Part shown: positions 31,796 through 60,911 of the stretch, piece after piece | Layout of the letters: the number at the start of each line of letters is the position of its first letter | How positions within the stretch are numbered: position 1 is the stretch's first letter | Assembly (NCBI GenBank): GCA_973895155.1 | Contig: OZ316894.1 | Location: 2,744,457-2,808,456, forward strand | DNA from: Marsupella aquatica | Lineage: Eukaryota; Plantae; Marchantiophyta | Direction of reading: 5' to 3' | DNA: 64,000 nt | Notes under the pieces: model-generated | The model's input: only the letters and a program-made list of their open reading frames with translations | Database searches by the model: none | Told to the model about the DNA's origin: nothing | Program-made: the position numbers and the translations under genes

Positions 31796-33065
31796 TCTGA
31801 GATGACAAGCTTAATTCAGGTATCCCCATGTGTCGGGCCTTCTGTATTCCCAATCACCATTTAAGAGTGCTTACGTATGGAGCTCAAGGTAAGTCCTATT
31901 TGGGCCCAGTATGGGATCGCAAATAAGAGCCCGAGCAAGATCTTCCTTCTCCCGAGGAATCAGTGTCTCCTCTGATACCAATTCAGTAGGACTACCTAGG
32001 CGTCGACGTTGTTCTCCAATCGACTTCTTCTCAGGTGTTGTCCATCCATCAGCATCCTGCATCTTGGCATCCGAGGCAAAGTGTAAGGAACGTTGGTTCT
32101 TAGCTTTCTTTTTCCCCTTCTCTTTCTTCTTTTCCTCAGGCGGTGACCTCCTTGCCAGCTTCCTTACCCGGTCTCTCTTGATTTCCATTCTTGAGATGTC
32201 ACTAGTAGAAACCGGGGGGTATTTAGACCCCATTAAACAACTATTCAGTACCGTATAGGACTTGGAAACGGTTGGGAAGGACTCCAGTCCTTTATAGGAC
32301 TATGAGTCGTATGTTTTGTTACTATAATCAACTGAGTCCTTTATAGAACTGGTTTATAAGTCGTTTTATAGACTGGATTTTCAGTCTATTGTAGTCTTTG
32401 TGTGGGTAGGTTTGGTGAGTCTTTTTCAGTCTTTTATGGGCTGCGATGGTGAGTCATTGGGAACGACTCAAAAGGTTATGGAGGGTAGTCTTTAAGTATA
32501 CTTTGTGGGTTTATAAAACGACTAAAGTAGACAATTTGTGGGGTATGTACAAGTCTTTCATGTCAACTGGAAATGAGTGATGAAGACCCCACTATACTAC
32601 TTGGAATGAACTCACTCTTGTGCACAAATAACACATTCCATTCATGTTTTATTGTGTACTTGGAATGAACTCACTCTATAAGGTCCCCATTCACCATGTT
32701 AACATTAGAACCTCACACAAATTTTCAGAAAGCCATCTTCTATACCATGTACACTAATATGAATTCACAGATTCAAACATCATAGACTACAAAGAAGGTC
32801 AATGTGCATTCGTCTATACCATACACACTAATCCTGAAATGATACAAAACAGATTCAAGTATCATAGACAATCACCATAGAGCCATAGTTTGACATCAAT
32901 CACTTGTTTCATATATACAGAATTCAGAAATATCAATGTCACACACAACGGCTCCTTCATCCTCTTTACCAAATGGAAAAATTGGTACAGATATTTCTTG
33001 GATCTTTCCAAGGCAATGTCAAAATGTAACACAATTCACATGATTCTATCTACACTTGCATTCAA

Positions 33066-36000
33066 TCACTGCAGACTAACACACTCTGATGGCCAGAGCA
33101 CAAGAGATCCTACTGCATCTGCAATTATTTCCTGAGGTGGATCATCGTCTCTATTCGGAAATGGCAAATTACAATCAGATACAATCACTGTAGTCAACAA
33201 CACTACTACATGGTCATCCGGGACCACTTTGCCATGGAATTTAGCATGATCCGGTCGCAAAATGCCTGTACCCACACATACCTGCGAGTCATCCTCCCAT
33301 GATAGAAGATTATGGACAGGCTCTGCTGTGGCTATCACCTCCACCTTACCCTGGCTATTTTTCTTGGCTTTCCTGGGTGGCTTATACATGACATTATTCA
33401 TACCTTGGTTGCGAGTCATGACTTTGGCACGAGTGTTTTGTGCTGGTGATCGAGAATTGGCTACACTCTTCTTCAAAGAATCTGCATCCATATTTGACAC
33501 TTCCGATTGTATAGCAGGATTTCCCTGCGACATCATCTCAGTATCTGCCAACATTGTACTTGCTTCAATTGAAACATCTACAATCTTACTTGCATCCAAT
33601 GTTGCTCCCAAGTTTCGAAGTCGCTTCACCCTGCTCCCACTTGGTTGAGAGTCTGTCAACTCTGCATCAACTACAATTCAGTGCATTGTCCAACATAAGT
33701 GAATCACTCATCACATGTGCGCCATGTACATGTCACCAACCACAAAGTTGTCACTATCTCCTTACCATTATGAACAGCCTTCTTCCCCTTCTTTGCCATT
33801 GCCATATCCTCCATGCCTGCTTCTGCTGATCAATAAACACACCACAATATTCAGGTTTAATCTATTAACCACTGAATTGTTTCTCAACAATGGTAGGAGA
33901 GGAATTTAAAGCATCAGCTTACCTGATACCTCCTTGGCTATGGTCACTGAGGCACTGGGCACATCTTTTTCATTGCTCTTTGAATCACCTGATACATCAA
34001 TCATGATGTCACTTCAGATCCCAGTTGATCCAACCAGGTCTTACAGAAAAGATTACCTCCAACCGGCTTAAGCTTCACAAAACTCCATGCACTTTTCAAA
34101 TATAATGTACTGGATCATAGCAGGTTACCTGTCTCAGCAACCTTTTTGCCATTCTGCTTACTGATTACAGGGTCCTTCTCTGCCTCCACTCTTCCTGCAT
34201 TCAAACCATTCATTCAATTCATGAAAACTTACTTCTAACATTTGAACATAGGACACAATGAACAATGGGCCGGTGTCATTTCCATACCTGTGTCAGATTT
34301 GCCAATTCCCTTTTTTGTTAACAAGGGCACACTTTGTACAATGTTGCCCTCATTGTTTGGTTGGGAACCACCCAATTTTTCAATCACAAGCTTGAAATTA
34401 GATTCCACTGATGCAAGAAGGTTCGCTACAGATGCCTCCACAATATCCAAACGATCAGCCAATTTACTTTTCACTCGAGGGAGTCCACACTCTAATGACT
34501 TCAACCGTTCACACATCTATGTGAGAGTTGTAACAGTTCCCTGTCATAACATAGCTTACATATCTCAGATAATTGTCCCCAAGAACTGGTTGCTTACTTC
34601 CTACTACAATTCTTTCTGATGCTCAAGGCCAAATAGTCACAAAACATACAGAATTACAACATAATCACCTGTTTGGAAGTCACACTTGTCACCTCACTCC
34701 TTTGTTTCATGAACTCCTCTCTCACTTCTTGTGCTGATGGTTCTTCACCTGTCAATTTCTTCTGCAATCCACATCAATATACATATGAATGAAACCAAGT
34801 GTTGATTGTCAATGAAAATGTAATAATGGTAGCAAGATGATAAGTTTGAGGCTTACTATCAGGCCTTCATTGGAGCATAACTTCCTCTCCCAGCCTGTGA
34901 CAGGTGTTTCACTTTGTCTCGAGCATTTGACATCAGTTCATTTTTGCTCTGTCCAGCCTTTGACATGAACCCTTTGATTAACCGTGTCCATTGATCCAAT
35001 TCCAATGATGGGGGTGGTGGCATTGTCCTATTAGAACCATTGTCTATCCACATCCTTTTCAACCTATGCCTCTCTTGTTTCAAAATCCTCATTGCATAAT
35101 CTGATATGCAATCTTCAACTGGGCCCTTACCATCATTACCAACATAGTCCCACCGTTCAAGAATGTCCTTGCAGATAGCAGCCCAATCAGCTTTGTTCTG
35201 ACTCCTAAACTCTGTAATGCTCAAATCTAACCAACGCAATACTTCTCCTCTTAGGTCAGAATGCCAACGGTTCTTACCATCACATGTGGGAGTTATCCAA
35301 CCATCGGAATTCACTTCTACTTTACCAAATTTGTTACTGTCTCCTGCCTTGGTACTCCCTGAAGCGCTACTAGGTGTCCCTCCATGGCCTGGTGTCCCCC
35401 CACGGCCTGGGGTCCCTCCACGGCCTGATCTCCCCCCACGGCCTGGATTGCATTGTCCAAACCTCCCTGGAGTCCCTGCACATTTACAGGATCCATTAGG
35501 TAAGTATGAATCATAAATGCTGCTGCCAAATATACACTGGACTTCAGAGCAATTCTGCAATGACCAAGTTACCTCTCCCTTGGCGCATAGATGGTTCTGG
35601 ACCACCTGTCCTATTGCTTTGTCTTGATGAATTAGGGCCGTTTCTCCCGCCTGTGAATGATTGCCTCCTATTTGAACGTGGATGGCCTTTGTTGTTTTTG
35701 TGATTGTCCCAATCAGAGTCTGCATACCAACAGGTACATGCCACACTCATGGACCTGTAAGATAAACTCTTTGCCCTAGCTACACATCAGATAAGTCCAT
35801 ATTGAGCTAAATCTCTACTACCATCACAAAATCACTAGCACAAGGCACTTACTTGTCCAATCATCCTCCTCACCTTTCCATTGCCCTCTGTACCCGTCTC
35901 TACCACGCTCTGGGTGTTCATATTCATCCCATCCATCTTCTGCTCCATCATAGTCATCATCATAATTATCAGGCGTCCCTTGCCAATAACTCTGGCTCCT

Positions 36001-36190
36001 TCTAGGGTATGGATTATGTGATTTCTCTCTAGCTGCCCACCTACCTGGGACTTGATGAGGGCCCTGTGCATCCTGCACAGGTGCATTTTTCTGTGAGCCC
36101 CCTGCAGCTGGGCTCCATCCATATCCAATCTTTCCTCTTCACCCCACTCTCCAAGCCCCATGTCTGTCTCCATGTCATCACCCTCTTCCC
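33066..36190 (-). pseudogene. Multi-exon TnpA-like gene of CACTA-2 (exon structure not fully resolved)
   Basis: Ptta-like segment WTRLIKGF..NARDKVKHLSQAGRGSY, GTPGRGG repeats, and a C-terminal Tnp1/EnSpm-like domain FHGKVVPDDHVVV..LPFPN..AVGSLVLWP. Confidence 0.7.
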
Positions 36191-36371
36191 CCATAGCTTT
36201 TGCAGAGCACCCACAACCAAACAGGGAGAATCAACACACTAAATTCAAAGTATCAATCAATTTCATGCATATCCAACTATCCTAAACATCATTCCAGGCA
36301 GCAATTCCCGTTCTGTGACTCTGTGCAGGTAGTCATCCTCAACCTCATACTTGCCAATCGCCAGCTGTTGC

Positions 36372-37984
36372 CTATTGCAAATCATCAACCTCATCATATT
36401 CCATTTGCCCAGGTTCATCATGTGTCTCTCTCAATGTTAAGGGGATGTAGTCAGTCCCTGCCCGAGTTGGAAGTACAGTCTCATGACTAGGATGCTCGAA
36501 TGCAGCATGGTCATCCAAACTGAACTCTACTTTACTTCCATCCATCCGCCTATTCCGTGCTTGGCTATGGCATACCACCCTCCAGCCATGTGACTCCTCC
36601 ACATCTGGAAAGAAAGCCTGTTCAACTTGGCTAGGGAAAACAAAAGGCTCAGACCATTCTGGTACTCTGGACCTAAAATTGGCCAACAAGAACCCATCAT
36701 GATCACGCTTGATGGTGGCCCTTGGTCTCTGCCACTTTGATTTCACCCATGATTCCTTCATCAATATCACTGGGACACTTGTGTTACCATAATTCAACAC
36801 CCAAATGTTGGTCAACTCCCCCACGTAACCCATCTTCATCCACCCCCTCTGTTCTTCAGAGGTTCTCTGCTCAAACACAGAAATCAAACCACAATCATAT
36901 GATACACAATGGTCACCCTGCTCATCCCTCACTCGATAATGATTTCCATAAGCTCTCATCCGTTTGTAGGTCAGAATAGACAATCGTGGTGGCACAGATA
37001 GAAGATACAAATCCTTCTTCATATCTGGGTGATGTCTACTATGCTCTCAAATTGTCACCCGAATCCACTGCTCGAACTGTGGGAAGGGATCCTGCTGCCC
37101 AGAGTGTGCAGCTTTTTGCATATCATATTCCCTGCAATATGAGGTACAAGCATAGTTAGGTCTAAACAACACATGACAACCTAAGATCACCCTTGGAACA
37201 AACAAGAAGCATCACAACAAAGGCAAGTCAATTCAATCACTCACCTCCACCATGGTTGCATAGGCTCTATGTTTGCCAGCACATATGAATGAGCCTTGTC
37301 TCGAATCACAACAGGCAGCTGAACAGCACGTCCCACACCTTCAACAACCTCGCCACTCACTCCATCATCTTCACCAGATTTCCAAACTCTTGTCATAGCT
37401 TCACCAGACCCAGCCATGTACTCTGTTAGGAATCCCAACGTCTCATCCTTAATGTACCCCAATGCCATGGAAGCCTCTGGCCTGTAGTATGTTCTCACAT
37501 GACCTTTTAACAACTTCATGTATCGCTCCATAGGGTACATCCATCTGGTACTGACTGGCCCATACTGCCCTAGCTCTTCTACCACATGGATTAGGAGATG
37601 AGTCATAACATCAAAGAAAGCAGGGGGAAGTATATCTCCAAGTCACAGAGGACATAAGCAGCATCCTGCTTCAACTGCTCCAATCCTTGGGGATCCCACA
37701 CTTTCACACATATATGGCGAAATACATTGCACAGTCGAAGAATGACATTACAGACTGGTTTCTGCATGAGACCTCTGAGGCATAGGGGCAGAATATGCTG
37801 CATCAACACATGGTAGTCATGTGTTTTCATACTGCCAAGTTTATTCTTTGTAATATACTTCTTGAAGGCACCAGCATAGCTAGAGGGCACTTTCAGACAG
37901 CTCAATCTATACAAGAATGTCTTCCATTCTTCCTGTGTGCACACATACTTAGGGAGCTTGGAACTTGAGAAGTACATTGGGATT
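36372..37984 (-). pseudogene. CACTA-2 transposase, C-terminal half
   Basis: MKTHDYHVLMQHILP, MTHLLIHVVEE..GPVSTRWMYPMERYMK and EPFVFPSQVEQAF; frameshift at ~37605; intron 37244-37132. Confidence 0.92.
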
Positions 37985-40262
37985 TGTGATGCCTAGACAG
38001 GAATCACTCGACCAGTTAAGTGGGTAAAGCAGGAAGGCACCCTAGGAACACCTTAGTATAGGGACAAAACAAGGAAAATATAAACAATTAGGGGCAACCA
38101 TGGAACCCGGGCCGAGGCCGGAGGTAAGGATGCTGAGGGTGAAAACTCGATTAGGGTTAGGGTTAGGGCGCGTTAAGCGTCGGCGGCTAGGAAGGATCAA
38201 CGGGAAGAAGGACCAGCAGAGGAGAGGGGTAAGGAGCGCTTGCAGGAGATGGTGGCTCATTTGCGAGCATGAACTAGGCAGACGACTACGGGAGGCCAAC
38301 TACTGTCAGCTGCTTAGGCAAGCACTCGGGGAGAGAGTAGATACCGACGATCGACCTAAGGAGGGTATGAGCAACGTCAATCAAGCGGCACATTTCTGGG
38401 GATGCCTGTTCGAACGGGCAACTGAGTACATCAAGACTTACGAGGACGAGGAATCAGAAAGGGCAGCTCGAGAACGGCAGGAGCTCGCTCGATTGTGGGA
38501 GCTGCAAAAGACGGCTTTCTTAGGAGGCGAATCATCAAGGACGAGTTCCTGTGGACGCCTACTTCCAATCAACTCGACCATCTTCTGTTTTGCAAAGACA
38601 GCGTCGTCGGCATCCGAGAGGCCATCAAGAACTGCAACGACATACACTGGGAATTAAAGGGTAGCACGGAAAGGTGGACCCAGGCAACGGTGCTAGGAGA
38701 AACCTCCACGGTAGCAGAGATGAAGAGGAAGGGAGCCGTCAATGATGAAGCCACCCCGACAAAAAGAACGAGGTCGGCGGCACCAAAGAAGCCAGCCGAG
38801 CAATAGAGCAGGAGGCAGGGAGAAGCCGAAGAGGAGGAGGTCGATCCCATCAAGGCCATTCCAACCAGGGATGACACCTGGAAGGGCTGGGCGGCAACCC
38901 TACCGGTGGAGGTGCAACTACATTTTGCATGGGAGGAGGATGCATGCTTTACGGCCATGCAGACCAAGAAGTACCAAGGCTTCATGGCCGGATCCGGCTT
39001 AGAGGCCTTTGTAAGATTACCATGGCTGAAGCCGGAGGTACCGGAGTCAGACCTATTAGAATTCGTGGGGTCATGGGAACCCGAGACCAATTGCACGAGG
39101 ATATATGGGAAGAATTTCTATCTTACTCCCAAAGTAATTGCCGAAGTGTTTGGCTTGCCGATAGGCAATAAGACCAAAGTTGATACCAGGAAGACCTTGC
39201 CTGACAAGGAGTTCCGGTCGTTCCCCGGGCCATCAACGAAGAATGGCTTCTTCCGGAACACCTGCACCAACCCGCACATAGGAGAGATGATCGACTTCTT
39301 GCGGGTGACCATGCATTGTAACTTGCCGAGGGCAGAGATCGGCAAGGCACAGGTCTATCTGGCAGAGAGGCCAGACCCAAGCCGGGACTACAACGGGTAC
39401 CTCCTCAACCAATTGAAGAAGATCTTAAAGGAGGAGCAGTAGGTAATCGGCATGGGGAGCGTGTCGCGGCTTGGCTATCACATGCCGCTGTTGTGCCGGT
39501 ATGCCAGAGGTCAGACTTTTGCCCCAGTACTTCCCCTGCAGGTAAGGGCACCCGAGGAAGCTCCAACGCCGAGGCCATTGGCTGAGAAGCCTCAACCACC
39601 TGTTAGCCCTACGATCGAGCAGGTGTTTAGGCCCAGGAAGGAGGACTTGCCGATGCAGCAACCAGGCATGCAGAGTCTGCTGAAACTACTGGAGAAAGAA
39701 AAGAGATCGGCATCGGCAACGACTACGGCAACGACAACAATGCAGGACACTACTACAGAGGTAGGCCTACACCGGCTCACAAGAGAAAACCCCTTTGCTG
39801 GAGACAAGGAGAGAATCAGGCCGGAATCCAAGCCAGGTGTTCGAATGTATGTGGGAGTCTCAAGCTCCGAATCTGAGGCAGAATTGCCTGAAGCTCCTAC
39901 CGACGAAGAGGAGAGGGAGAAGCCGGACGTCCAAGAAGTAGAGGAGGCAGTGGAGGACTGCAGCCATGATAATTCCGGCTATGGGTCGGACCATCACGTT
40001 CCAGGAGTAAGGACCTGTGGCCGGTTTGTCCCCACACTTCCAAGGGTAGTGCGAGGGGACCCCAACCAGCAGGGTAGCCCTGAGTCTCCCCCACCAGATG
40101 TTGCTCCCCCGAGCTTTGACGGCATAAAACAGACGGTGCAGGAATTTCAGGAGCGAATCAGGCAGGAAGAGGAGGCAGCCCTGGCTAGGGAAAAGGATTT
40201 ACCAGGAGGAGATTGGCCGGAGGACATCAGGCGGCTAGCCGAAAAAGGAAGCAAATACCCCC
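37985..40262 (+). mobile_element. Truncated LTR (same family as 42447-46118) with disrupted ORFs; right boundary approximate
   Basis: Begins TGTGATGCCTAG and is colinear with the reverse complement of 46118-44575. Confidence 0.8.
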
Positions 40263-41903
40263 CGATTCGGCCATCTCAATATCAGAAGGAGGATCAGAAG
40301 TAGAGATTTGTTCACCATCTCCTTCCTCAGAAGTAGGAATGGGTTCTCTTATTATCAATGCTTTACTCAAATTTGGCGCTTCTAGTGCCGGGACCTCCGG
40401 GTGTAGAGTAATCTCCCTAGAATCAGCAAATGGGAGTTCAATCACTTGCAGGTCCTGTATAACCTTGTGGATCTCGCCTTTGTATGGGAGATCCTTAGTC
40501 CTGGATTCAGTAAGACCGCAATCCACAGTCGGCCCTACCCATCCACGATCATTAGAGGCTGGCAGTGCATTCGCAACACCCGTGAGTACTTGACCGAAAA
40601 GAATTGGTATCTCTCCATTTTCCTTGCCAGGTATCAAGAGCCCACCTTGAGTGGGTGACTCAGCTGTTGTCACCAATACAGGTCCGTCCTCAGAGCGGAT
40701 GTCATTGTCCACAATGGGAACGGGAGCAGCCACTTCCACCACATTCACATTCTTTGCAGCACTCGTCACCCCAGCCATTTGTTCATTTAGTGCCGGCTCC
40801 ATGGCATTCACATTTTTGGCCTGAGGATCCTCAGTAGCCCTAGTCTCTTCAAAATTTCTGCAATCTCGAGCAAGATGGCCCTTCTTTCCACAACAAAAAC
40901 AATGGAAGGGTATATTTTTAAAAATTACTGGTTGCCAGATGGAAAGACCCTTCTGAATTTCCACCTCAACACTCAACGGCACTTCTCTTTGAGTATCCCA
41001 GAGGACACAGGCTCTGTCATGAGGGTAAGAACTAAGATCATCTCCCTGAATGTAATGTAGAATGTCTCCCAAGGAGGCAGCCAACTTCCTTCGGCATGGC
41101 TCTAGTATCAAGGCTCTAAAAGGGATTTCAATCCAAACAGGTAGCATCGTGTAAAACTCACTGCGTATATCGAACAATGGATCCCATGGAAAGGTGAAGA
41201 CATATTTCCTCTCAAGGAACCAAGGTGCACATGCTAGGGCAAGGTCCCTGTGTTCAGGATCTTTGAACGTAACCATGTAAAAGCTTTTTCCCACAAATTT
41301 CACCTAAGTGACAGGCGAATTCATCTCCTCTACAAAGGTCTTATTCACCCAAAATTTGAAGGTTGGAAGCATTGGTGCCCTGTCAGTGAAGTAGCACATC
41401 ATTGTGCAGTTAAAAAGTTCAGTGACTGTCTCTGCAGCCTCATCCAGGGACCACTTTATTGTGGTATGCAACTTAGAAGGCCAATCCTGGATTGAGAGAT
41501 CCAAAATCCTTCTCAAAATTGGTATGCATGCTTCAATTTCTGCCACCCGCTCCACCTCAGTAGCGCGCTATTTATCAGTGACAGTCCCCGGGGGTGCGCT
41601 CTTCTGATGAGCAAGCGCCTCATCCCTAGGTTCAATTTCTCCGCGGTCTCCAATATCATCTTGAAAGTCCTCCAAAGGGAGGCCCATAATCCGCCCTTCC
41701 ACTTCATCCATTTGAAGATGATCTTGTGTCCTCTGAGAATCCCATCTTGAGAAACCGTCCCTCTCAACACCAGAAGATCTGAGTCCATACCAGCTCTGCG
41801 CGTTACCAGTGCCTTGATTCGTACCATCAACTTGCAAATGGGGATGTCCAGAGCTCGTCATCGCTCTGACATCCTGACTTGGTCCTCCAAGCACGGAAGC
41901 CAC
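40262..41903 (-). pseudogene. LINE ORF1 (DUF4283-like domain and CCHC zinc knuckle)
   Basis: FYMVTF..APWFL..FPWDP.F..LPVWIEIP and CFCCGKKGHLARDC; in-frame stops. Confidence 0.9.
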
Positions 41904-43348
41904 TCCTCCGCCAAGTGGCTCAACACCCTTTCCCTGGGAGTAAATATGTGTTTTTTAATACAGAGGGTTGAGCCAGTAACACATATTTTGGTTGTGATCA
42001 AGTTTTTCCACTACATCAAAACATGTTTAGGTTTATTTTTAGTTACATTGTTTTTTGGATTCCTTGAGTTGAGAGGTACAAGAGTTTAGTAGTCAAGACT
42101 AAAATTGAACCCTAATTAACATGGTGAATATAAGGCCATTATAAGGAATGAAAAATTGGCCTTACGAAAAGGGGAGTTGCATACCCGAGTTGTTGTTTAA
42201 TTTCCTTTTTCTTAGGAGAGGGGACAGAAGAGGGGATGGACACACATTGACAGCATATGTAATCAATGCAATGGTTTCTAGTAAGGGTTAAATGAATTTG
42301 AATGGATCTCATTTACTTTTCCTCCCCTGGCCTCTAAATGAACTTCTCACCCCTTTAATATTAATATTCCCAGTACAAATTGGTTATTCTACGAGACTTG
42401 GTCAATACCTAATCATGCATAAACATGTGTTGTTGCTGAAGAGAAGTGTGGTGCATCCCATGGCTCCCTAAACCCAAGAAACCCCCTGCACAAGCCGATT
42501 CCCGCAGGTTTCGCTCTCAGCGAGGCCGGCTCCGCGGCTTTAGCGGCATGGGACGCTGCTAACTCCACTACTAACATTTTACACACATATACTAGACAGA
42601 TCCTTCATCGGGTCATGAGATACATAGTTGGCCTCTTCTATGCCTTCCCTTGTCCTCCTGTCCTGGCCGGTCTTCCTTTAGGTATGTTTGGATTCCGCCG
42701 CCGGAATGATCCTCAGCTGGCTTGGGTAAGCCGCTAAGACCTCTCTCAGCTCGACACATCCAACTCTTACTACCTTGCTTACTCCCTTCTCTTGGTTGAT
42801 GTGGGCAATCTTCAAACAAGTTAATGCGACACACAAATAGCAAAATGACTCCTTTTGACTGAATTATACCATGCACTTGCCATACTGTAAACAGTACTTC
42901 TCATACACAAGATCTGCGAACTAAGCCGTGAGGCCAACTCTATTCATCTCTTAGGCATGAGGAAACATGAATATACACAAGGGTCACAGTATAACTAATC
43001 GATAGCTTCTTTTACTACTTGATCCTAGCCCTGCTGGTGCTCTAAAAACTTGCTAAGGAAGAAGGTCGTGAACTCCCCGCTGCCCAGGTACTTATCTTGG
43101 CAGTGGATCCACCTAATTCCTTGCAGCGTAAGCCTAATCTATCCTAACTGAAATCTACCTATGTACATCGAGGCAGTCCGAGCACAAGTGTTGCTCTTAC
43201 CACTGGATCCGCAATCCCACTAATCTAAGTGTCAGGGCCGCCTCTTGGTCCTGATCCTAATTTCTAAACTTAGAGATTTGCGCCCACCCTGCCCACTCAC
43301 GCCTCCTCCCTCCACGCCCGTCCTCCTTAAAAGGAGCGACTCTTTGCT

Positions 43349-44383
43349 TTACTCTCCATCGGCTTGACTAGGTCCACCCTCGGCTTCAGCCTCAGCATTG
43401 GCCACGACCTCCAATACGACTACGGCCTCCCTGACATGCTCTAGTGGTGGATCCGGTATCCCGGCTTCATCACTGACTGTCCTGGCCTTGGCTTTGCTAT
43501 CCCCGCCTTCTAGGACAGTTGGATCCTCTGCCGTGACCCTACCTGAGGTTGGTGCCGGGTTCTCCTCCGTGGTCACGACGGCTTGAGAAGCCGTGACATT
43601 ACTCCCTGACCCAGAAGGTTTCCGCTTCTTCTTCTTCCCTATTTTGGTAGCTGGTCCCTTCCCATTGCTACTTACTTTCGGCACCGGTGCGAGTGTCACG
43701 GCTTGTCCTTTGGCCAGTACTACCCTTGGCAACTTGGTTGCCCCACTTGGAGTTGGAACTGATGAAGCCAAGCACTTAAATATTGCGGCTTGTTTCTTCA
43801 GCCGCTCCGTTTGGTTGTCGGCTCGTCGCTGTAAGTTCTCCATCTTCCTCGTGCTTTCTTCCAACTCCTGCGTTTCGTGCAGGTCCTTCCGCGCCTCCTC
43901 TAGCTCCTTCTGAGCTTCCTCCAATTCCTTCTGGGCTTCCTCCAATCCCTTCTTCAAGGTAGCCCTCTCCTCCTGGCTTTCTCTCAGCTCCTTGTCGAGC
44001 TTTGTCACAACCTCAGACTCCATCTTATTCATCTTGGCATAAGTCTGATCAAGTTGGTCGTCTTTCTCACGCAGGTCGGCTTTGAAGCTGGCCGTCAAGG
44101 ATGCAAGCTCCTGCTGTAGCACAATAATCCCTTGATAGGATTTCCCTAACTCGGCTTCCTTCTGCTCAAGGGCTCCACGGATATCCTCGAGCTCCCCCTT
44201 CAACGCCCTCTCCCTCCTCTGGGTCTCTACCATGGCCCAATTGTTGGTTGCTATGTGGGCCTCCTCTGCATCCCTCAGCTCTCGCTTCCACTTCTCCCTT
44301 TCCTTGACCGCATCGGCCAACTCCCCTTGGGTCCGAGTCAATTTATCTTTGATAATCTGATTATCAGACTGAGCAATATCCAA
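43349..44383 (-). CDS. Coiled-coil protein fragment inside the LTR
   Basis: 344-aa open frame with heptad repeats (LEEAQKE) and a basic KKKKRK stretch. It is probably the 3' part of a longer ORF disrupted at ~44400-44570. Confidence 0.6.
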   Translation of the reverse strand: MDIAQSDNQIIKDKLTRTQGELADAVKEREKWKRELRDAEEAHIATNNWAMVETQRRERALKGELEDIRGALEQKEAELGKSYQGIIVLQQELASLTASFKADLREKDDQLDQTYAKMNKMESEVVTKLDKELRESQEERATLKKGLEEAQKELEEAQKELEEARKDLHETQELEESTRKMENLQRRADNQTERLKKQAAIFKCLASSVPTPSGATKLPRVVLAKGQAVTLAPVPKVSSNGKGPATKIGKKKKRKPSGSGSNVTASQAVVTTEENPAPTSGRVTAEDPTVLEGGDSKAKARTVSDEAGIPDPPLEHVREAVVVLEVVANAEAEAEGGPSQADGE

Positions 44384-44608
44384 TTGCCCCTACATGATGT
44401 TTAGCTCATGCCGCTTAATCCGTAGCTCATCTTGGGCTTTCTTGGCTGCCTTCAGGTCCTCTGCCTTGGCTTCCTTCTCTCTAAGCTGTCGGATGATCTC
44501 GTCCTTCTTTCTTCTCTCCAAAGCCACCGCTTCTTCCAATCGGCGTTTTTCCAACATCTCTCTCTAGAAAAAAAACAGCGGCATGTGATAGCCAAGCCGG
44601 GACATGCT

Positions 44609-45442
44609 TCACTTGCCGATCACTTGCTGTTCCTCCTTCAAGATCTTCTTCAGCTGGGTGAGGAGGTACCCGTTGTAATCCTTGCTTGGGTCTCGCCTCT
44701 CCGCCAGGTAGACTTGTGCCTTGCCAATCTCTGGCCTTGGCAAGTTACAATGCATGGTTACCCACAAGAAATTGATCATCTCTACGATGTGCGGGTTGGT
44801 GCAGGTGTTCCAGAAGAAGCCATTCTTTGTTGATGGCCCTGGGAACGACCGGAACTCCTTGTCAGGCAAGGTCTTCCTAGTATCTACTTTGGTCTTATTG
44901 CCCATTGGCAAGCCAAACGCTTCGGCAATCACCTGGGGAGTGAGATAGAAATCCTTCCCATACACCCTTGTGGAATTGGTTTTGGGCTCCCATGATCCCA
45001 CAAATTCTAATAAGTCTGAATCTGGCACCTCCAGCTTCAGCCATGGTAATTTCACAAAGGCTTCCAAGCCGGATCCGGCCATGAAGCCCTGGTACTTCCG
45101 AGTCTGCATAGTTGTAAAGCATGCATCATTCCTCTTCACGTGCAAAGTGCAATTGCACTTCCTCGGGGAGGGTCGCCGCCCATCCTTTCTAGGTGTCATC
45201 CCTAGTTGGAACGACATTGATGGGGTCGACCTCCTCTTCTTTGGCTTTGTCCTACCTCCTGCTTCCCTGCTCAGCTGGCTTCCTCTGCTTCCCTGCTCGG
45301 CTGGCTTCCTTGGTGCCACCAACCTTGTTCTCTTCGTAGGGGTGGCCTCTTCGTTGTTGGCCCCTTTCCTCTTCATAGCGGCTGCCGTGGATGTTTCTCC
45401 GAGCATGGTTGCCTTCATCCACCCCTCCGTGCTACCCTTCAA
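44609..45442 (-). pseudogene. Retrotransposon accessory ORF (resembles the Athila/Tat extra-ORF 'putative plant transposon protein' domain)
   Basis: GLEAFVKLPW..LLEFVGSW..TRVYGKDFYLTPQVIAEAFGLP, nearly identical to 38906-39442 (+). The family assignment rests on pattern recall only. Confidence 0.6.
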
Positions 45443-47949
45443 TTCCCAGTGTATGTCGTTGCAGCGGTTGATGGCTTCCCGGATGCCGACAATTCTGTTT
45501 TTGCAAAATAGAAGGTCGTCTAGCTCATTGCCAGTAGGTGTCCATAGGAATTCAGCCTTGATGAGTTCTCCTCCTAAGAAGGCAGACTTTTGCAGCTCCC
45601 ATAGTCGAGCGAGCTCCTGCCGTTCTCGAGCTGCTCTTTCTGATTCTTTGTCCTCATAGGTCCCAATGTACTCAGTTGCCCGTTCGAACAGGCATCGATC
45701 CCCAAAAATGAGCAGCTTGATTGACGTTGTTCATATTACCCTTCTTGAGTTGATAGTCGGTATCTGCTCCCGCCTAGAGTGCTTGCCTAAGTAGCTGACA
45801 GTAGTTGGTTTCACGTAGTCGTCTGCTTAGTTCGTGCTTGCAAATGAGCCACCATTCCTTGCGATCGGTCCTTACCCCCCTCCTGCCTGGTCTTCCTTCC
45901 CGTTGGTTACCCATAGCCGCCGGCACTTAGCACGCCCTAACCCTAATTGTGTTCCCTGTCGGGGCGTCCTTACTTCCAGCCTTGGCCCGGGTTCCATAGT
46001 CACCCTTAATTGTTTATATTTTCCTTGTTTTTGTTACTATACTAATGTGTTTCCAGGGTACGTACACTCCTGATTTTACCATTTAAATTGGCCTAGTGAA
46101 TCCTGGCTAGGCATCATAAGAAGTTGCATAAAAGATGTTGCATAAAATATGTCAATGCAAAACAGATGACTGTAAAGTTGTTAGAGAAAAGGTGTCATTG
46201 TGCAAATGTTGTCGATCATTCTTCAAAAGATGTTGTTGCATAAAAGATGTCACTATGAAAAAGATGTAATAAGCGAAGAAAGTCATGGATGCAAAGCGGG
46301 ATGCAAAGTATAGAGATCTAGCTATGCAACTAAAATTACCTATCATACTCTTCTTGATGAGCTTGTGCTTAGATTTTCACTACGATTATGTCTCGGGTGT
46401 GAAAGTCAATTGTCATTTCAATTGGGTTGTCATTGTGGTTGAATGTGTGATTGACATTCCAGAGATTCCAGAAGTGATGTTGTTCATGTACAATGTCATC
46501 ATTTTGATCCTTATTGTTGCTGAAAAAGTGATGGTGTTTAGGAGGGTAAGAGTGCAGAGAAGTACAAGATGGGCAATGGTGGCTGTGCAATGGTTGAATG
46601 TGCAAGGCTTTGGGCAACATTTTGGATGTTGTTGATCTTGCTTCCATCCTATAGCATCTTCTGGCTAGGATGTATGCCCAGGCTATCAAGGATCTTTGTC
46701 TACACCTACATACAGTCATTCCCCAAGTCATTTGATCTCTCCATTTGAGAAACTTAGTTTTGCTTCCCTTTTAGGTCTTGCTTTGCTCTTATTTCCCTGG
46801 CATCATTGTCTAGAGCAAAGACAACATTCATAATTAAAGGGAAACCAATGATCATCCAACACACAAGTAGTTGGTCAACACTCAGGGATGCATGGTTCAC
46901 CTCAGCTGAGGCTACATCCAAGGGAACACAAGAGAACTTTACTGCGTGCACTCTAGGCCCCGCTCTAGGCCCATTGACAAATACCGAGTCTCCCCACTCC
47001 AAGATCTCTTCTACCTTTGTAACAATGAGCCTAAGTACCTCCTATATATCCAAGCAAACACTACTTGGGGATATACTGTGCAACACGGCTAACCTAACCA
47101 AGTCTACAGTTAAGATGAATCCTAACTACATTAACAGTTGTAACTCTAGACCTAATAGTAAATGCCTAACAATCATTTATTTAGCAACTCACACTTCCTA
47201 TTTCTTAGAGTGGGTTTCATTGAGAGCATAGCACCTTTGGCCCTTTTTGGGCACATGGGCAACAACATAATTTACATTGTTGGCAGATATATTCCTTGTT
47301 AAGGATACACCTTTTCTACTTTCATTTGTCATGGATCACTCCAATTATGAGCACCAGTTCCGGGATCAGATCTTGTTCAAATTGTATTATTTACCTTCAT
47401 TCTAGGAGGTTTTGCCTTGGTTTTTGTCCTAGGACCCTGTCCATCTTCAGGATGACCTCAATAGGTGATTGTATGCACTCTTCCACTATCTTTAGCATCT
47501 TGATTGCCAAAAGCACCTGAAACGGGAGTGAGCTTGGATTGTTTGTTTGAAAAAGAAGGTGCAAGGGGTGTCTTCAGGCCAAGCCTGGGATTCCTCATTT
47601 GCATATGTCTATGGTGGAGTTTGTGATACCCATGCATCTTTGTATGGGGCTACCCCACTCACTTCTTGTTGGCTTGCTTTCTCCTTGCACGTGTGGGAAG
47701 CTGGTAATTAATGCCATAGGGGCTGTCCATCTTCTTTGTTGCAGTTGGGAAAACAAAGAAGATGGTTCTTCTCAAAATTGGATTAAAACAACCCTAATGT
47801 TCTTCAACAAAAATTTAAATTTTTTTCATTACATCCAATAAAAAACCTTATACTTATTTGCGCGTGATGGGTTGGAAGAAAAGAAGTGAGGACCCTGGGT
47901 TCATGATTATGTGAGGGATACTATTGCTCTGTCAGGATTTCTCCCTTGG

Positions 47950-51944: not shown

Positions 51945-52468
51945 GGCACTGATACTGCTCGATATAACCGGATCTAGGATGAGATCTGGGAGGAAACTTT
52001 GCCTGAAACTATCGGAAACCTTTTTCCATTCCAGAAAACATCGGACCCCTCGGATAAAATGACGAAGGAGAGGTCGATATGGTTGCCTTCGGACAACTTC
52101 CGATATGTTTACTATTGCACCTAGGTTTCGAACCAATATCTTTCCCAATATCATGTCCGTTGTTTTAAATATCAGACCATGTCCGTTTGTTTTTCCAACG
52201 AGCCTCAGGTCCGAGTGTATTTGCATCGGAAGCTAAAGCCTTACTTTTGTCGTCTCTTTGCAATGCTATTAATTTTGGACATTGTCCAATAGTTCTGGTA
52301 TGGGATATGGTTTGCGATGTAGTTTACATCGGTACCTTTATTTCCGATATATTATGAATCGGAAATTATGATGGTTTTAATATCGGAATTTGTCCGATGC
52401 ATTCAGTTTTGGACGGGTAAAAGAAGCCGCAATTTGAGTATCGGAAAGAGACCAAAAATGTACTAGTG
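51945..52468. mobile_element. Terminal fragment of a third CACTA element
   Basis: Ends ..AAAATGTACTAGTG (reverse complement CACTAGTAC) with dense TCCGA/TCGGA subterminal repeats, and truncates a LINE ORF1. The other end was not found. Confidence 0.8.
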
Positions 52469-53430
52469 TCTGGGTTTCCCTCTGCCGTCTCATCCAGTTC
52501 CTCCGGAGTGTCATCAATTTCTTCTCCCTTGTTTTTCTGGTCTGCTTTTGCAACCACATCCCTTCCTTCCCTGCATTCCCGAGCTAGATGGCCTTTCTTA
52601 TTACACTTGAAGCAGTGAAATGGAATGTTTTTAAATAGGATTGGTTGCCAAATGATTATGTCCTCCCTTATCTTAACTTGTGCACTTTGGGGCACCTCCC
52701 GCTCAGTGTCCCAAAGGATGCAGGCCCTATCATGTGGATAGGAGCTGTAGTCGTCTCCTTGGATGTAGTGTAGTAGCTTCCCAAGTGATTCTGCAATCTT
52801 AATTCTACATCCTTCTAGCACCAGAGATCGGAAAGGGAGCTCGATCCAAACAAGCACCTTCGTATATTTTGCAGATCTGATGTTGAATGAGGGGTCCCAT
52901 GGGAACGTAAATACCAATTTACGCTCAAGAAACCAAGGTGCTGATTCTAGAGCCAGATCACGATGATCTGCCTTTTCAAATACTATCAGGTAAAATCCTT
53001 TCCCCACAAATTTAACCTGTAACACTAGCCAATTCCGCCCCGCTACCATCCAGTCTTCCACCCATGCCCAAATAGTGGGTAGCATAGGGGTCCAGTCAGT
53101 AAAATAACAAAGCATTGCGCAGTTGTATAATTGCTTGACATTACTCATAGCTTCTTCCAAGCTCCATTCCACCGTAGTGTATAGCTTCGTGTTCCAATCC
53201 CCTTTTGAGTTTTCAGCAATCTCCTTTAATATGTTAATACATTTATCTGAAACCCCTTCCCTCCCTTTTCCTTCCGGATTCGCCGTTGTTGCCTCCTCGT
53301 TCAGGTTACCAGGACTCACGGGTTGCTGATGCCGAGTTGTTGTTGCTAAACCCGAAGGTCTGTTTGTTGTTGTGGAGGATCTCATTACCCTAGGCTCCTC
53401 AGTGAGAGGTGAAGCCACCATTTCAGCCAC
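52469..53430 (-). pseudogene. 5' fragment of a second L1 LINE (ORF1)
   Basis: KFVGKGFYLIVF..APWFLERKLVFTFPWDPSF..CFKCNKKGHLAREC; paralogous to 40262-41903. Confidence 0.9.
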
Positions 53431-54339
53431 CTCCTCATGCGCCGTTTGGACTCCTTGAGTCTCCCATGAGTCGGTGGCCCCTTGTGGGCTCGATCAGAGT
53501 TGGCAAATAAATCAAAGGGCTGTTGGGCAACAAAATTAGGATGGTGTTGTTGAGCCCTCTGCGGGCCCCAATCCCAATTTGGAACTTCCCCACATGAATC
53601 TGTGCACTGTATCTCAAGCTATCTTCACCGTGAGATGTCATATCGTAGCAGGGAGGCGCAGTGGGTAAAAAAGAGTAAAGCAGAGTGTCTTCTTATCTCT
53701 CAAATAGTTCCTCCTTGTGAAACCAGTAATTAATGCCAATCAACCCCTCCTCTCGAGGATTATCGCATCATAATCACCACCTTTTCTTACTCTTGTTCTT
53801 CCCTTCCCTTCACTGTTCCCCCAGCCTTCTCCCTAACCTATATGTCTCTTACACTTCTCAAATTGCCACTTTTTCCTCCCTGTTCAATTCCTTTGGCCAG
53901 CCCTATCTTTGGTGCTGTCCGTTTCTCTCCCATTTTCCCAAAGGCGATCTCGGCTTGTCCTCCTCTACCTCTCCTATGCTTCCTTTCCTTTAATTCCTTT
54001 CTGTCTTAGCTATCCCCAATCTCCATTCACTAGTTTCTCCAGTCCTCCATTTTGTCGCGGTATATTGCTATTGCTTCCCTTCTATCTCCCTGCCAGGTGC
54101 AACGGTTTTACCGTCAATCCTCAAAGTTTGCAAAACCTAATCACCTCCAAGGTCCGTGTGCTTACGATCCTAAACCATACTCAGCCATATTAATCTTGAT
54201 CACTTACGCCATCGCTCCTCAATCAATAGATCCCCCTCGTAATCTTAATCCCCAGAATCTTGATGATCCTTCTTGATACATTCCCAAACCAAAAACCCAC
54301 CGTGCACCTCAGCCCCCTTCTTCAGTCCCCAATTTCCTG

Positions 54340-55025: not shown

Positions 55026-56939
55026 AATAATATGATATGGACCTTATAATTATAGTACCCAATTGATAATAAACTTAAGTGAGTCACTTTAGGTACAAAG
55101 AGCTAACTTCTCCATTTTTGGAATCCAACAAAGGGCAAATTTCACTTTCTTAATATGTAATGTGCTAAGATAACCATAACGATATGAAACAAAATTACAA
55201 AAGATTCATCTACCTACCAAGAGTATTGCTGTCTACAAATAAATTGCAAATTACGAATACTTATAGTTTTGTTAAGATTGCATAAATCTATTGTGTTGAT
55301 TCAAATAAAAGCTCTAAGTGTTGTGGTAAATAATAAATTTACTAATGTTTGCACATCCATATATGAAAATGCTATAAATTTTTAGCTTATGATAAATATT
55401 ACATGTGTGAAAATTAGATTTTAAAGTATAGATAGAGTCCATGCTTGATTTAGCTTTATGAGTGAACAACTTTAGCAATCATATTTATTCAATGTGGAAT
55501 AAAGCTCAGAGAAACAAACCTCTATTTCAAGCTTAGATGACAGCTTGGGGTTGTTTCTTAGTGATGCCAAAATTTGTCTGCAAACTCACACAAAATTGCT
55601 CATGTCAATTGAATGGACAAAATATCAAGTCACTTCACAAATAACAAATAAACACAAATTCTAGTCATAAAAAACATGCACTGATCATATAAACATTTAC
55701 CTTAATGGTAGTCACCATGAGAAATCTTAAAAAAAGATCTTGTATGCCACTTGAGTGTAGCTCCCCCTAGACCTTATTCAAACATATTCCTTGAATATAC
55801 ACCAAAAAAGTCATAAGCACAATCTCAAAACTCATTTACACATTCAAAAATAACCAACTACAGCTTTTTACTAAGTAGTCCCCCAAATTGACCCAATTTA
55901 GTACCCGCTCCCCCAAACTAAATTATTTCTCAAGTGCCCCCCCATTCCGTATGTTGGGTTAAGTAAACCACAGGAGTTAACCCGAGGGTGTCCGTCATTG
56001 GTCGGGTGCCACATGGCGAGGCGCTACTTGCCCGCGTGCTACCCTGGTCAAGAATGCCCGGTCCCGCCCCTCCCTCACCCCCTCTACAGAATTAGGGTCA
56101 TCGGGCCCTCCTGGCCAAGGATCACCCTGCTCCGGCCCAAAGACTCCCTTTGCCCGACGGCTACCCTGCCGTGGCCCAAAGCCTCCCAAGCCCGACGACC
56201 ACCCTGCTGTGGCCCAAAGCCTCTCAACCCGACCACTGCCCTGTGCGAAAACTCCCGTTTTGTGTTAAAAAAAGGTTCGAATGTTTCAACATTCGCCCCT
56301 TACATAGGTGCAACAGTTTTCAGACTTCGGGAGGGCGACGATTCCTGCAAGAGTGGGATGAAAGCAGGTGGAATGGATGGCCAGCGGCCTCCCATTGAGC
56401 TCCGATGACCTCCTAGCTGGCGTGTTGAGGCAACACGTTCTCCCAAAAGCAACCACCACTGTTTACACATTGCTGCAGGTATTTCACAATGTGGATGGCA
56501 AAAAGAAGGTCTTGGGCGAAGGGCAATGACAAGGAGGTGGGACGGGAGGAGTGCGTTCTGTGAGTTCTCCTCATGTGAGTAGCCAAGGGAGGGGATCAAC
56601 GAATCCGGTGGGAGCTCGGCATTGTAGGGCAGGCCCAAGTTTTGACAGAACTTAGGCTTAAACTATTGCACATTCGAGCCGGTTTCAAGGCAAAATGACA
56701 TTGTAGTGAAATGGTGCCGACTGTGGGGGAATTCTTGTGAGTGGCAGAGGGCAACAAAGGACAGAGGACCACCTACTGCAAGAGCAAAGGGAAGCTTGTG
56801 TTGTCTTCCAGAAGTTACTGTAAGTGCTATCAAGAAAATGCTGTATTCTTTGTTCATGAAGACTGCATGTTATTTATTGTTCCTCTGGTATAAATTTCCT
56901 CTGTTCCTCATGTATTGCTTGCTTTGTGGTTTAGGAACC

Positions 56940-59013
56940 ATGGAATCACATGAGTCCCTGCAGCTGAAAATCGGGAAAACATATGACAGTTGGGAGGACT
57001 TGAAGAAAGCCATTGTAGATGATGGAGTTAGAACTGAGAGAGTAATTGTGACACAGAAGAAGGACCACAACAAGTGGAAGGTAAAATGTCGGATGAATGA
57101 CAATATCCATGGGGAGAAGCAATGCCATTGGCATCTAAGGGCAACAAAAAATGTAGAACTGAGACCATAACGATCACTCGAACTCACCTAGAACACACAT
57201 GCGAAGCTGCAGACCATTACAAACATAGAATGCACTCTAATTCAGATAGGCTTGCAGATCGTATACTGGATATCATTTAGAAAAATCGGCAAACAAGAGC
57301 CTCATTCTTGAGAGATTCTACCCAAGCTTTAGTCCACCCTGACATTAAATATCACACTGCATACGCTGCAAAATAGAGATGTTTGAAGCGTCTTGATGGA
57401 GACCAGACTGAGTCTTTTAAATTGATCCCTGCTCATTGCCACCATATCCTACAACGTGATCCGGGGGCAGTAGCTAAGTATAGAGCTCCTGGAGGTCATT
57501 TAGATATGTTGTTTGTCTGTCCCTCTGCTTCTAGAGAATCCTATCGTCACTTCAGGCCAATGATTGCATTGGATGGCACCCACACCAGGTGTATGTATCC
57601 TGGAATCTTGCTATTGGCAACCACACTGGATGCAAATAATACTGTGATTGTTCTAGCTTATTCTTGGGTGCCATCAGAAAATGAGGTGAATTGGAGGATG
57701 TTTTTGAATTTGTTAAGAGAAGCCATTCCAGACTTGAGCAAGCCAAACACTGTCTTTATTTCAGATAGAGAGAAAGGTTTGACTGATGGAGTGCCAGAGA
57801 TTTTCCCGCATGGGCATCCGGCATATTGCACTTGGCATCTTGCAGAGAATGTGCATAAACACCATGGCAAACAAATCAGAAAACTCTTTGAGAGCCTACC
57901 ATATGCTGTGACTCCAGCAAAGTATAATGCACGGCTACAGCGTATTGAAGAAAAGAGCAAACCTGCTGCTGATTACATTAGAAAGACAGTGAATCCCAAA
58001 TATTATTCAAGAGCCTTTTTTCCACATCGAAGGTAAACAACTCCCTTTCTGTCTTTCTGAAATTCAGCTACAATTTCCAGTACAGGGTGCAGTTGCTAAA
58101 CTTTGCTTGTTTGTGACAGATGGGGCCATGAGACTTCACAGCAAGCCGAAAGTAGCAACCGTGCTTTCAAACCACAGCGGCAGGAAATAACCTTGAACAT
58201 GTCTTGCCAAATTTGGGATTATATCATGGTGAAGTACTTTGAGAAGAAAGCGTTGGCTGCAGGGATCAGTACCCCATTCCCTCCCAACATCATGACATAT
58301 TTGAGGGACGTTGTGGAGAAAGCAACTCATCTTACTGCTCACCCATCCAGTCAATCAGAGGTGAGGATTACTGATGAACGGAACATTCAGTTCATAGTGC
58401 AATTTGAACCTCACTGGTCTTGTAGTTGTGGTGACTTCCAAGACACTCTTCTGCCATGCATGCATGCTTGGCGGGCCTTGACAAGACTATACAAGAGACA
58501 TTATGATTATGTCTCCCCAATGTACCTTTCAGAAACATTCAGAAAACGTATGCAACTCATTTGCCAGCCTTGGTAAGGAGTGACTTGCTGCCAGATCCCA
58601 ATTGTGGTCCGCCATTGAAGAGGTGGAGGAAAGGGCGTCCAACTGAGAGGTTGAGGATGCATTTCAATGATGATGAAGTGTGTCGACTGCCTCGAAAGTG
58701 TGGACTGTGTTGTGACAGAGGGCATGATAGGCGGAATTGTCCCCAACGTGCAGCAAGTCAAGAGATGGTGGCAACTTCTCCAATGCAAGTTCATGACAAC
58801 AATGTTGCAAAGAAATATCAGAACCTTGACAGTGACAAGGACAGCATGTACGCAAGTGACATGGGTGGCACTGATGACTCTTCCAGCCCTGAAGAGACCA
58901 ATGACGAGGGCGGAAGTCACACTGTAGTTGGTTGGGGAACACAGGATAGTCTTGAAATAGGTAGTTTCTCTCAATTGTTGGCTACAGTAGAATCTCAGGG
59001 TGCAAATCCCTGA
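56940..59013 (+). pseudogene. MuDRA-like transposase
   Basis: LKIGKTY..C..CHWHL..HTC domain; DDE core IALDGTH, FISDREKGL, CTWHL, QAESSN; SWIM CSCGDFQDTLLPCMH; knuckle CGLCCDRGHDRRNC. Intron 58033-58119. Stops at ~57168, ~57278 and ~57373 and a frameshift at ~58550. Confidence 0.93.
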
Positions 59014-59365
59014 TGATCAACAGAACAGTTTCATTTGGTTTTGCAAACTTTTCATGGCCTGTTCTATGTAGACATGCATTTTTCAACACTCATGAGGAAC
59101 AAACATGTGTGATTCATGGCCTGTAATATGTACACAGGCTTCTTGTAACACTTAGAGGAATATATGTGTATGACATGATATTGTCTTTTTGCAAAAGAGA
59201 TATGAATTGCTTTTCGTGAGAATACTTTACAAAGCTTGCCACAAACTAGTGAAATGTGGACAGAATTACAGAGTAAATTAAAAGCCACGCCAAACTTTAC
59301 TTCTATGCACAACTTTAATTACATCAGTTGTAGAGATTGATCCATCAGGATAGTTTTCACATAGT

Positions 59366-60016
59366 CTACATTTGGCGGATTCCCCAACCAGACCTACTTG
59401 TCATTCCTTTTTGCATATACTCTACTGCCTCAGCCCTGGTCTTGAAGGACTTAAACTTGCAGCCACTAAATCCCCACACTTGTTTTTCACACTCATCCCA
59501 CGTCTCATAAATTCCTGGTTGGAAACCGCGCACGACAGCATAGAATTTCTGCTTCTTTCCAGGTTTCCATGTGGATGCAGGGCCTTCCACATAGTGAAAT
59601 TGCGGAGTCTCTATACCAATTGGTTCTGCCACCCAAGCTGAGCCCTGGACAAATCCTCTGCCAATTGCTTCTGCCACCTTCGACTCTGAGCCCTGGACAT
59701 TTGAGCTCTTTGCTGGTTCTGCCCTGATCACTTGTACCTTAGTCTGTGGGGTTACTTTCGGACCAGTCGTCTGCTCACATATTAACAACTCCTCTGGAAA
59801 TTCTGGTGCACTGCGCTCATGGCTCCCTGGGGCATTGGGGTCATGGTTGCCTGCTCGATGTCCTCTAGAATCCAAGGTCTGTACACCTAAGTGCACATAG
59901 TCTCGACAACAGTGCAGCAGATCCGAGACGACACGAAATGAGGTGCCAAGCACTCCAAGGATTGCCCAAATGCAAATAAGGAATGCCTTAACAAGCAATG
60001 TCCACATCATTGCCAT
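59366..60016 (-). CDS. MULE-borne 216-aa protein with an N-terminal hydrophobic segment and a C-terminal RNase H1 N-terminal (caulimovirus viroplasmin-type) hybrid-binding domain
   Basis: Intact ATG-to-stop ORF; KFYAVVRGFQPGIYETWDECEKQVWGFSGCKFKSFKTRAEAVEYM matches the YAV.G...G.Y..W..C..QV.G......K.F....A pattern. No RNase H catalytic domain follows. Confidence 0.88.
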   Translation of the reverse strand: MAMMWTLLVKAFLICIWAILGVLGTSFRVVSDLLHCCRDYVHLGVQTLDSRGHRAGNHDPNAPGSHERSAPEFPEELLICEQTTGPKVTPQTKVQVIRAEPAKSSNVQGSESKVAEAIGRGFVQGSAWVAEPIGIETPQFHYVEGPASTWKPGKKQKFYAVVRGFQPGIYETWDECEKQVWGFSGCKFKSFKTRAEAVEYMQKGMTSRSGWGIRQM

Positions 60017-60911
60017 CTCCTGCGCACCTTCACCCTTGCCCTCTCACTGCTGCCTGAACTCGCAACAACAACAATCACAATAGACTAGTAAACTCAGTCA
60101 CACAGAATGTCAATCAGTAGGGAATCGAATGGGGAAATTCAAATGTGGAAACATTCAAACTTTCTCTTCAGCAAAAACTTGGGACTCCCTCAACAATGCT
60201 AACTCTCTCAGATTCAAAATAAGCTGGAGGACATTGAAGCCTCAAATGTGAACAAGTGGAAGGATAGAGGTGCTAGGGATAGGGACGCCAGGCTTAGGAG
60301 GTCGTCAAACCTCAATGGGAGGTTGTATGCCTCCCCTTCCACCAACTTCCCCTTGCTGTTTCCCTTCCGCTCTTGCAGGACTTATCGCCCTCCCGAAGTT
60401 TGAAAATAGTCGCAACTACGTAAGGGGCGAATGTTGAAACACAAAATGGGAGTTTTCGCACAGGGCAGTGGTCGGGGTTGGGAGGCTTGCGTCCACAGCA
60501 GGGTGGTCGTCGAGCTTGGGAGGCTTTGGGCCACGGCAGGGTAGCTGTTGGGTGAAGGGAGTCTTTGGGCCGGAGCAGGGTGATCCTTGGCCAGGAGGGC
60601 CCGATGACCCTAATTCTGTATAGGGGGTGAGGGGGGGCCGGGACCGGGCATTCTTCACAGGGTAGCGCGTGGGCAAGTAGCGCCTTGCCATGTGGCACCC
60701 GACCAATGACGGACAACCTCGGGTTAACTCCTGTGGTTTACTTAACCCAACATACGAAATGGGGGGGCACTTAAGAAATAATTTAGTTTGGGGGAGTGGG
60801 TACTAAATTGGGTCAATTTGGGGGACTACTTAGTAAGCTGTAACCAACTATTCTCAAAGCATTAAATTATTCTATTATTATAAAATTCCTACAAAACTAA
60901 GGCTGTGACTT

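Follow-up and report, generated by a model that had tools for sequence, protein, structure and literature searches.

A Marsupella aquatica MULE whose second gene joins a predicted membrane helix to an RNase H1-type hybrid-binding domain that lacks the nuclease

Second genes of MULEs and the hybrid-binding domain

The maize element MuDR combines long TIRs, a TSD of the 8-11 bp class, a transposase and a second gene (mudrA and mudrB), and its two genes are convergent. For MULEs as a group the TSD class is given as 8-11 bp, and the second genes described are mudrB, mutB, vanB and vanC (PMC6446971). MURB binds the N-terminus of MURA and is required for insertion (PMC12973397, PMC6446971), and the vanC gene of VANDAL/Hiun MULEs indicates that accessory genes of these elements can have an anti-silencing role (PMC6446971). 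VANC is a sequence-specific anti-silencing protein that binds non-coding regions of its own element. The locus described here, in a 64-kb stretch of the Marsupella aquatica genome (the window), shares the layout of MuDR; its second gene differs in having a PF01693 domain and a hydrophobic helix, shows no evident likeness to MURB, and, unlike VANC, has no match to a family of that kind.

The PF01693 (Cauli_VI) domain is best characterized as the hybrid-binding domain (HBD) of RNase H1, with structures from human (3BSU) and yeast (1QHK). The human HBD prefers RNA:DNA hybrids to dsRNA by a factor of at least 25 (PMC8677849), and the substitutions K59A and K60A reduce its affinity nearly 10-fold (PMC7261153, PMC8677849). 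A nuclease-free version of the domain occurs in a protein of another selfish element, the 520-aa P6/TAV protein of CaMV (PMC7102451), and PF01693 is also present in capE, which is cargo of a DNA transposon, the Pleurotus ostreatus Helitron helpo1.3 (PMC4289320). The latter differs from the present case in that the element is a Helitron, found in one long copy, and capE is described as a captured viral-like gene (PMC4289320).

An atlas of plant TIR elements lists accessory proteins with Cauli_VI for 1 of 1,846 MULE, 3 of 775 CACTA and 1 of 217 PIF/Harbinger clusters that were recently active, and for PIF/Harbinger it also has the domain in 3 of 217 transposase-assigned models (PMC12973397 Table S6). 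The MULE case is a singleton among 335 singleton domains (PMC12973397). These entries are like the present one in placing the Pfam domain in a MULE accessory protein; the rows concerned give counts only, and the main text of the same paper does not contain the word 'Cauli'. The pairing of domain and element is already tabulated there, and not discussed. No RNase H or Cauli term occurs in the text and three supplements of PMC6446971, as far as these were available, and the available text of 10.1101/572842, PMC4083042, PMC13547354, PMC5603734 and PMC5751038 holds no relevant mention; their supplements could list the domain. No discussion of a Cauli_VI domain as a MULE second gene was found in the literature consulted, and the layout with a membrane helix is without a found relative.

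Anatomy of the element and its second gene

The element is a 4,980-bp MULE (Mutator) DNA transposon at positions 55861-60840 of the window, arranged as TIR, gene, gene, TIR, with the two genes convergent and the whole flanked by a TSD. Its features are as follows.

55851-55860, unstranded: left TSD, 10 bp, a perfect match to the right copy
55861 to about 56423, + strand: left TIR
56820-56934, + strand: probable intron in the transposase 5' leader, with GTAAGT donor and TTTAG acceptor, inferred from sequence
56940-59013, + strand: MULE transposase pseudogene (DBD_Tnp_Mut, MULE DDE, SWIM, zinc knuckle)
58033-58119, + strand: transposase intron, 87 bp, GT-AG, an exact 29-residue gap against the intact relative P0170
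59014-59365, unstranded: spacer of 352 bp between the convergent stop codons (3' UTRs)
59366-60016, - strand: second gene, 216 aa, uninterrupted, with a G at both -3 and +4 of its ATG
59417-59548, - strand: RNase H1-type hybrid-binding domain (PF01693, Cauli_VI), aa 157-200
59616-59699, - strand: tandem duplication within the linker with a 48-bp (16-codon) period and a 3-bp indel between the copies
59942-60004, - strand: hydrophobic segment aa 5-25, a predicted membrane helix within a predicted helix of aa 3-48
60285-60840, - strand: right TIR, upstream of the second gene
60841-60850, unstranded: right TSD, 10 bp, a perfect match to the left copy

The outer 405 alignment columns of the TIR arms hold 379 matches, 21 substitutions (14 of them transitions) and 3 gaps, a pairwise divergence of 5.25% and an identity of 94.8% across 400 aligned outer bases; over the whole arm identity is 85% across 572 columns. 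The transposase matches PF10551 (E 7e-14) and SWIM (E 5e-5), with weak matches to PF03108 and the zinc knuckle, and its D/D/E motifs lie at 57566, 57758 and 58145. The two relatives of the transposase that were found, at 35% and 32% identity, are both environmental sequences; a fungal origin of the element was considered on this account and is not claimed. Alignment to intact relatives places in-frame TAG stops at 57278 and 57374 and frameshifts at about 57150-57165 and about 58540. The original prediction was right that the transposase is broken but counted at least three stops and a frameshift: the further stops, from 58034 onward, fall in the 87-bp GT-AG intron. With two stops and two frameshifts in its transposase, the element is not an autonomous active MULE. 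RNA folding of the spacer between the two genes is unremarkable on the - strand (z -0.46).

The rest of the window holds a mixture of host and transposable-element sequence, in which the LRR receptor kinase and the CACTA and DUF4283 LINE pieces point to a land-plant host. A host LRR receptor-like kinase gene with an open frame of 1,174 codons occupies 1474-5610 (- strand), and inverted arms with subterminal repeat arrays of about 19 bp at 7960-10600 resemble a non-autonomous TIR element. A degenerate tandem array of 24-25 bp units with many telomere-like TTTAGGG words (21400-22170) lies upstream of a region (22908-27205, + strand) in which a SET-domain frame (23330-23719; PF00856, E 5.5e-7) sits just upstream of CACTA frames for Transposase_21, DUF4218 and DUF4216 (24342-27205); the SET-domain frame is possibly histone-methyltransferase-like cargo of the CACTA element. 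A decayed LINE with endonuclease (27925-32299, - strand) and a second CACTA remnant with DUF4218 and DUF4216 (33069-37642, - strand) follow. At 38066-46031 there is an inverted duplication of about 1.4 kb (79-89% identity) of a long frame without Pfam match (38807-40300, + strand, and 43352-45730, - strand), with a DUF4283 LINE ORF1 piece between its arms, and a DUF4283/zinc-knuckle LINE ORF1 lies at 52366-53493 (- strand).

The second gene occupies a mudrB-like position and starts about 270 bp inward of the right TIR. Its translation, its placement and its hydrophobic start all agree with what had been predicted, as does the domain, which matches PF01693 at E 6.8e-20 (71.5 bits against a curated cut-off of 21), with no catalytic RNase H family (PF00075) in the Pfam search and a stop codon 16 residues past the domain. 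The only PDB sequence matches are RNase H1 HBDs, those of yeast 1QHK (E 6e-8) and human 3BSU (E 9e-8), three sequences in all. Human W43 and K59 have their equivalents in W173 and K189, and S190 stands at the position of K60. In a set of 343 homologous domains, Ser is found there in 30%, and wherever a column of this set is conserved to at least 75% the second gene has the majority residue; the set was chosen by likeness to the query and so leans in its favour. The protein differs from RNase H1 in that the domain is C-terminal, the catalytic domain is absent and 156 unrelated residues come first. A truncated RNase H1 was rejected on this domain order. The linker had been described as low-complexity; it is instead predicted to be disordered (pLDDT < 50) and contains the 48-bp tandem duplication, which keeps the frame, as does the 3-bp indel between its copies (read by eye).

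The most hydrophobic 19-residue window of the protein is aa 7-25, with a Kyte-Doolittle mean of 2.29. An AlphaFold model made from the single sequence has low confidence as a whole (mean pLDDT 47.5), with only aa 1-40 above 70; its confident part is a helix of aa 3-48, with blocks of 73-94 pLDDT across aa 1-40, and the domain region reaches 41-62 with the expected strand-helix order. A Foldseek search with this model returned nothing at E 0.001, and the model was not taken as evidence. It is quite likely that the N-terminal helix is real. The alternative is that the hydrophobic stretch is an intron or UTR, in which case the product, if any, would be a soluble linker-HBD protein. The probable leader intron of the transposase, which was used as a negative control, likewise reads as an open frame for a hydrophobic peptide, and the T content of the stretch (0.38) is close to that of the transposase intron (0.36). 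Codons 1-43 have a negative codon score, and they are covered by a candidate GT-AG intron of 141 bp that keeps the frame (60027-59887, AAG/GTGCGC donor, TTAG/G acceptor). After such splicing, however, there is no in-frame ATG before the domain, and a start further upstream is prevented by the in-frame stop at 60044-60046. The hydrophobicity of 2.29 compares with 1.71 in the intron control; of the 279 open 45-mers of the window that begin with Met, the start of the second gene itself among them, 2 are as hydrophobic. T favours codon position 2 (8/15/10), unlike in the intron (18/19/14), and the context of the ATG is strong. A wrong 5' gene model is regarded as highly improbable.

Origin and intactness of the second gene

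Several measures indicate that the frame is a gene in the historical sense, and its length exceeds what chance would give. When the dinucleotides were shuffled 20,000 times, the 156 codons before the domain remained free of stops in 13 cases. A codon model was trained on 5,123 codons taken from 16 other frames in the window; by this model codons 44-155 reach 0.15-0.16 bits per codon in frame, and the two remaining sense frames 0.09 and -0.05 to -0.07; codons 1-43, at -0.095, are nearer to the intron control (-0.167) than to the remainder of the ORF. The CpG observed/expected ratio of the second gene is 0.39, a noisy value from 651 bp, next to 0.34 in the transposase, 0.35 in the CACTA element, 0.44 in the LINE and 0.63 in the host LRR-kinase gene. 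This depletion, like that of the transposable elements, suggests long residence in methylated TE DNA, and is a modest sign.

The second gene has no lesion in 648 bp, compared with four in about 1,987 bp of the transposase. At the lesion rate of the transposase, the probability of finding none in 648 bp is 0.27 (0.20-0.38 for five to three lesions), and the conditional P for the difference between the two genes is 0.32. In decay simulations at 2.6% substitution (5,000 runs), with indel rates going up from 0 to the TIR-derived value of 0.0037, the frame was still open in 46%, 29%, 19% and 9%; with both rates doubled it was open in 0.6%. The arms of a TIR need not begin identical, so the age could be less than the figure of 2.6% implies, but not more. 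The argument that the gene is intact and therefore selected was rejected on the probability of about 0.27, which bears out the caveat of the original prediction that its intactness could be chance. The MULE copy itself is probably decaying neutrally, with the second gene still open by chance. It had also been proposed that the ORF is a domesticated cargo gene, which would mean that it now serves the host and is kept by selection after the death of the transposase. The absence of lesions would fit this, but the difference from the transposase is not significant, the TIRs and TSD are still crisp and the gene is CpG-depleted in the manner of a TE; domestication of the present copy is unsupported by these data and very unlikely.

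Searches for relatives of the second gene returned the domain and little else. A protein search with the whole ORF gave one match, a fungal RNase H that aligns in the domain only, and a search with the domain region gave one match to a bacterial-type RNase H. Against 1.84 billion representatives, phmmer returned 5,931 matches, of which the best 150 all cover only the domain region; in these 150, aa 1-152 found nothing better than E 5.5. The Atlas gave no usable match to aa 1-150, for which no family or relative was found in any of the protein searches. An exact look-up of three start variants found none, a 23-nt TIR pattern had 0 metagenome matches and the window contains no other copy of the gene. 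Nuclease-free HBD proteins are themselves common: 54 of 62 matches, picked from the best 150 of phmmer towards short or top-ranked ones and in part incomplete, lack PF00075 at E 1e-5, and the closest Atlas clusters are Cauli_VI proteins of 194-256 aa, mostly from Basidiomycota (score 0.93). Six proteins (P0017, P0025, P0031, P0091, P0010 and P0112) are of an Ascomycete type; they hold two or three copies of the HBD and have a C-terminal region in common. That region has no PF00075 match in any of them, and several are named 'Ribonuclease H' in their source.

The family was also approached through its transposase. The transposase core, aligned with its two relatives, led to 112 confirmed metagenome loci, of which the best 80 (27-46% identity, 289 kb) were taken. 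A profile of the 343 domains, which scored 80 bits on the window and 75 bits on the viral-contig locus L081 as positive controls, detected the domain in none of the 80, with a top score of 1.4 bits; 24 of the 80 have at least 1,600 bp downstream. TIR arms of at least 65 bp around elements of 2.6-3.5 kb were seen in 6 of 15 loci inspected (two of the six being the same element), and none of the six has a clear second gene. In viral contigs a single locus, L081, was found, with an HBD-RNase H-type gene in an unrelated context. The absence of the domain from the 80 distant loci, together with TIR-bounded elements that have no clear second gene, implies that the gene is a narrow add-on rather than a broad trait of this transposase group.

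These results bear on the possibility that the second gene is passive cargo, a host or other-TE gene for a helix-linker-HBD protein captured in Pack-MULE style, without benefit to the element and open because the copy is young. MULEs often take up host sequence (PMC6446971). A narrow distribution, the abundance of nuclease-free HBD proteins with small Cauli_VI clusters as the closest in the Atlas, and the chance of about one in four that the frame would still be open are all consistent with capture, and the open frame and the good domain would also be accounted for if an intact donor had been captured recently. Other features are harder to reconcile with it, namely the exact mudrB-like placement behind the right TIR, a reading that needs no introns, CpG depletion on a par with the transposase and linker changes that keep the frame. 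Passive capture is the main rival to the reading favoured below and a real possibility, if on the whole an unlikely one.

A possible hybrid-binding accessory protein

The best explanation, which is held tentatively and falls a little short of probable, is that the second gene has long belonged to the element family as an accessory gene and that its product would hold on to RNA:DNA hybrids and leave them uncut, as a MURB-like tether or as a hybrid shield; about half of the weight given to this reading lies on a tether step and the rest on the shielding of the element's own hybrids. The convergent layout with its TSD, the strong domain, its place at the C-terminus, the open frame, the frame-keeping changes in the linker and the loss of CpG point in this direction, as do the role of MURB in insertion and the presence of Cauli_VI in recently active plant TIR clusters and a fungal Helitron. 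The lack of the domain in distant loci, of any relative of aa 1-150 and of a second copy in the searches made for one, the non-significant intactness, the poor score of codons 1-43, the singleton status of the MULE case in the plant atlas and the Ser at the position equivalent to K60 count against it, and a membrane anchor fits awkwardly with work on chromatin. In the proposed mechanism, transcription would start from the right TIR, as in MuDR; the N-terminal helix would act as a signal-anchor, so oriented that the domain lies in the cytosol or nucleoplasm; the domain would bind hybrids (R-loops) arising at the element under convergent transcription or at target sites that are being transcribed; and this binding would benefit transposition. 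The original prediction had offered a TE-borne R-loop binder as one option, which is plausible.

Another option offered was an RNA-silencing suppressor. On this reading an ER-seated protein would sequester dsRNA from convergent transcription away from Dicer, in the manner of viral suppressors. Convergent genes may yield dsRNA, the HBD binds dsRNA weakly, a membrane anchor would fit a cytoplasmic role, and vanC provides a precedent for anti-silencing by a MULE accessory gene. The argument from CaMV P6 is weakened, however, since P6 with aa 166-201 deleted still suppresses, domain D-I being what suppression requires, and the deletion sits in the miniTAV domain, which overlaps the RNase H domain (PMC3836500). 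In the Pfam and protein searches nothing like D-I was seen in the second gene, whose aa 1-150 are without match, and no likeness to P6 outside the domain was found. The P6 deletion presumably removes part of the Pfam domain. The preference of the human HBD for hybrids over dsRNA and the presence of a single HBD also speak against suppression, which is quite unlikely as the role of this protein.

To return to the accessory hybrid binder, a wider reading would have the nuclease-free HBD of RNase H1 recruited repeatedly as an R-loop reader by unrelated selfish elements (plant MULE, CACTA and PIF/Harbinger, a fungal Helitron and caulimoviruses), with the membrane-anchored version of this MULE holding hybrids at the nuclear envelope and thereby steering insertion or shielding from silencing. 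This is conceivable but doubtful.

The roles of MULE second genes are largely open, with MURB lacking a recognisable domain and VANC being lineage-specific, and a second gene with a nucleic-acid-binding domain of known structure gives a direct handle on function. If the gene is passive cargo, it represents an ordinary capture. A selected helper would link R-loops with cut-and-paste transposition or anti-silencing and account for the occurrence of the same domain in three plant TIR superfamilies.
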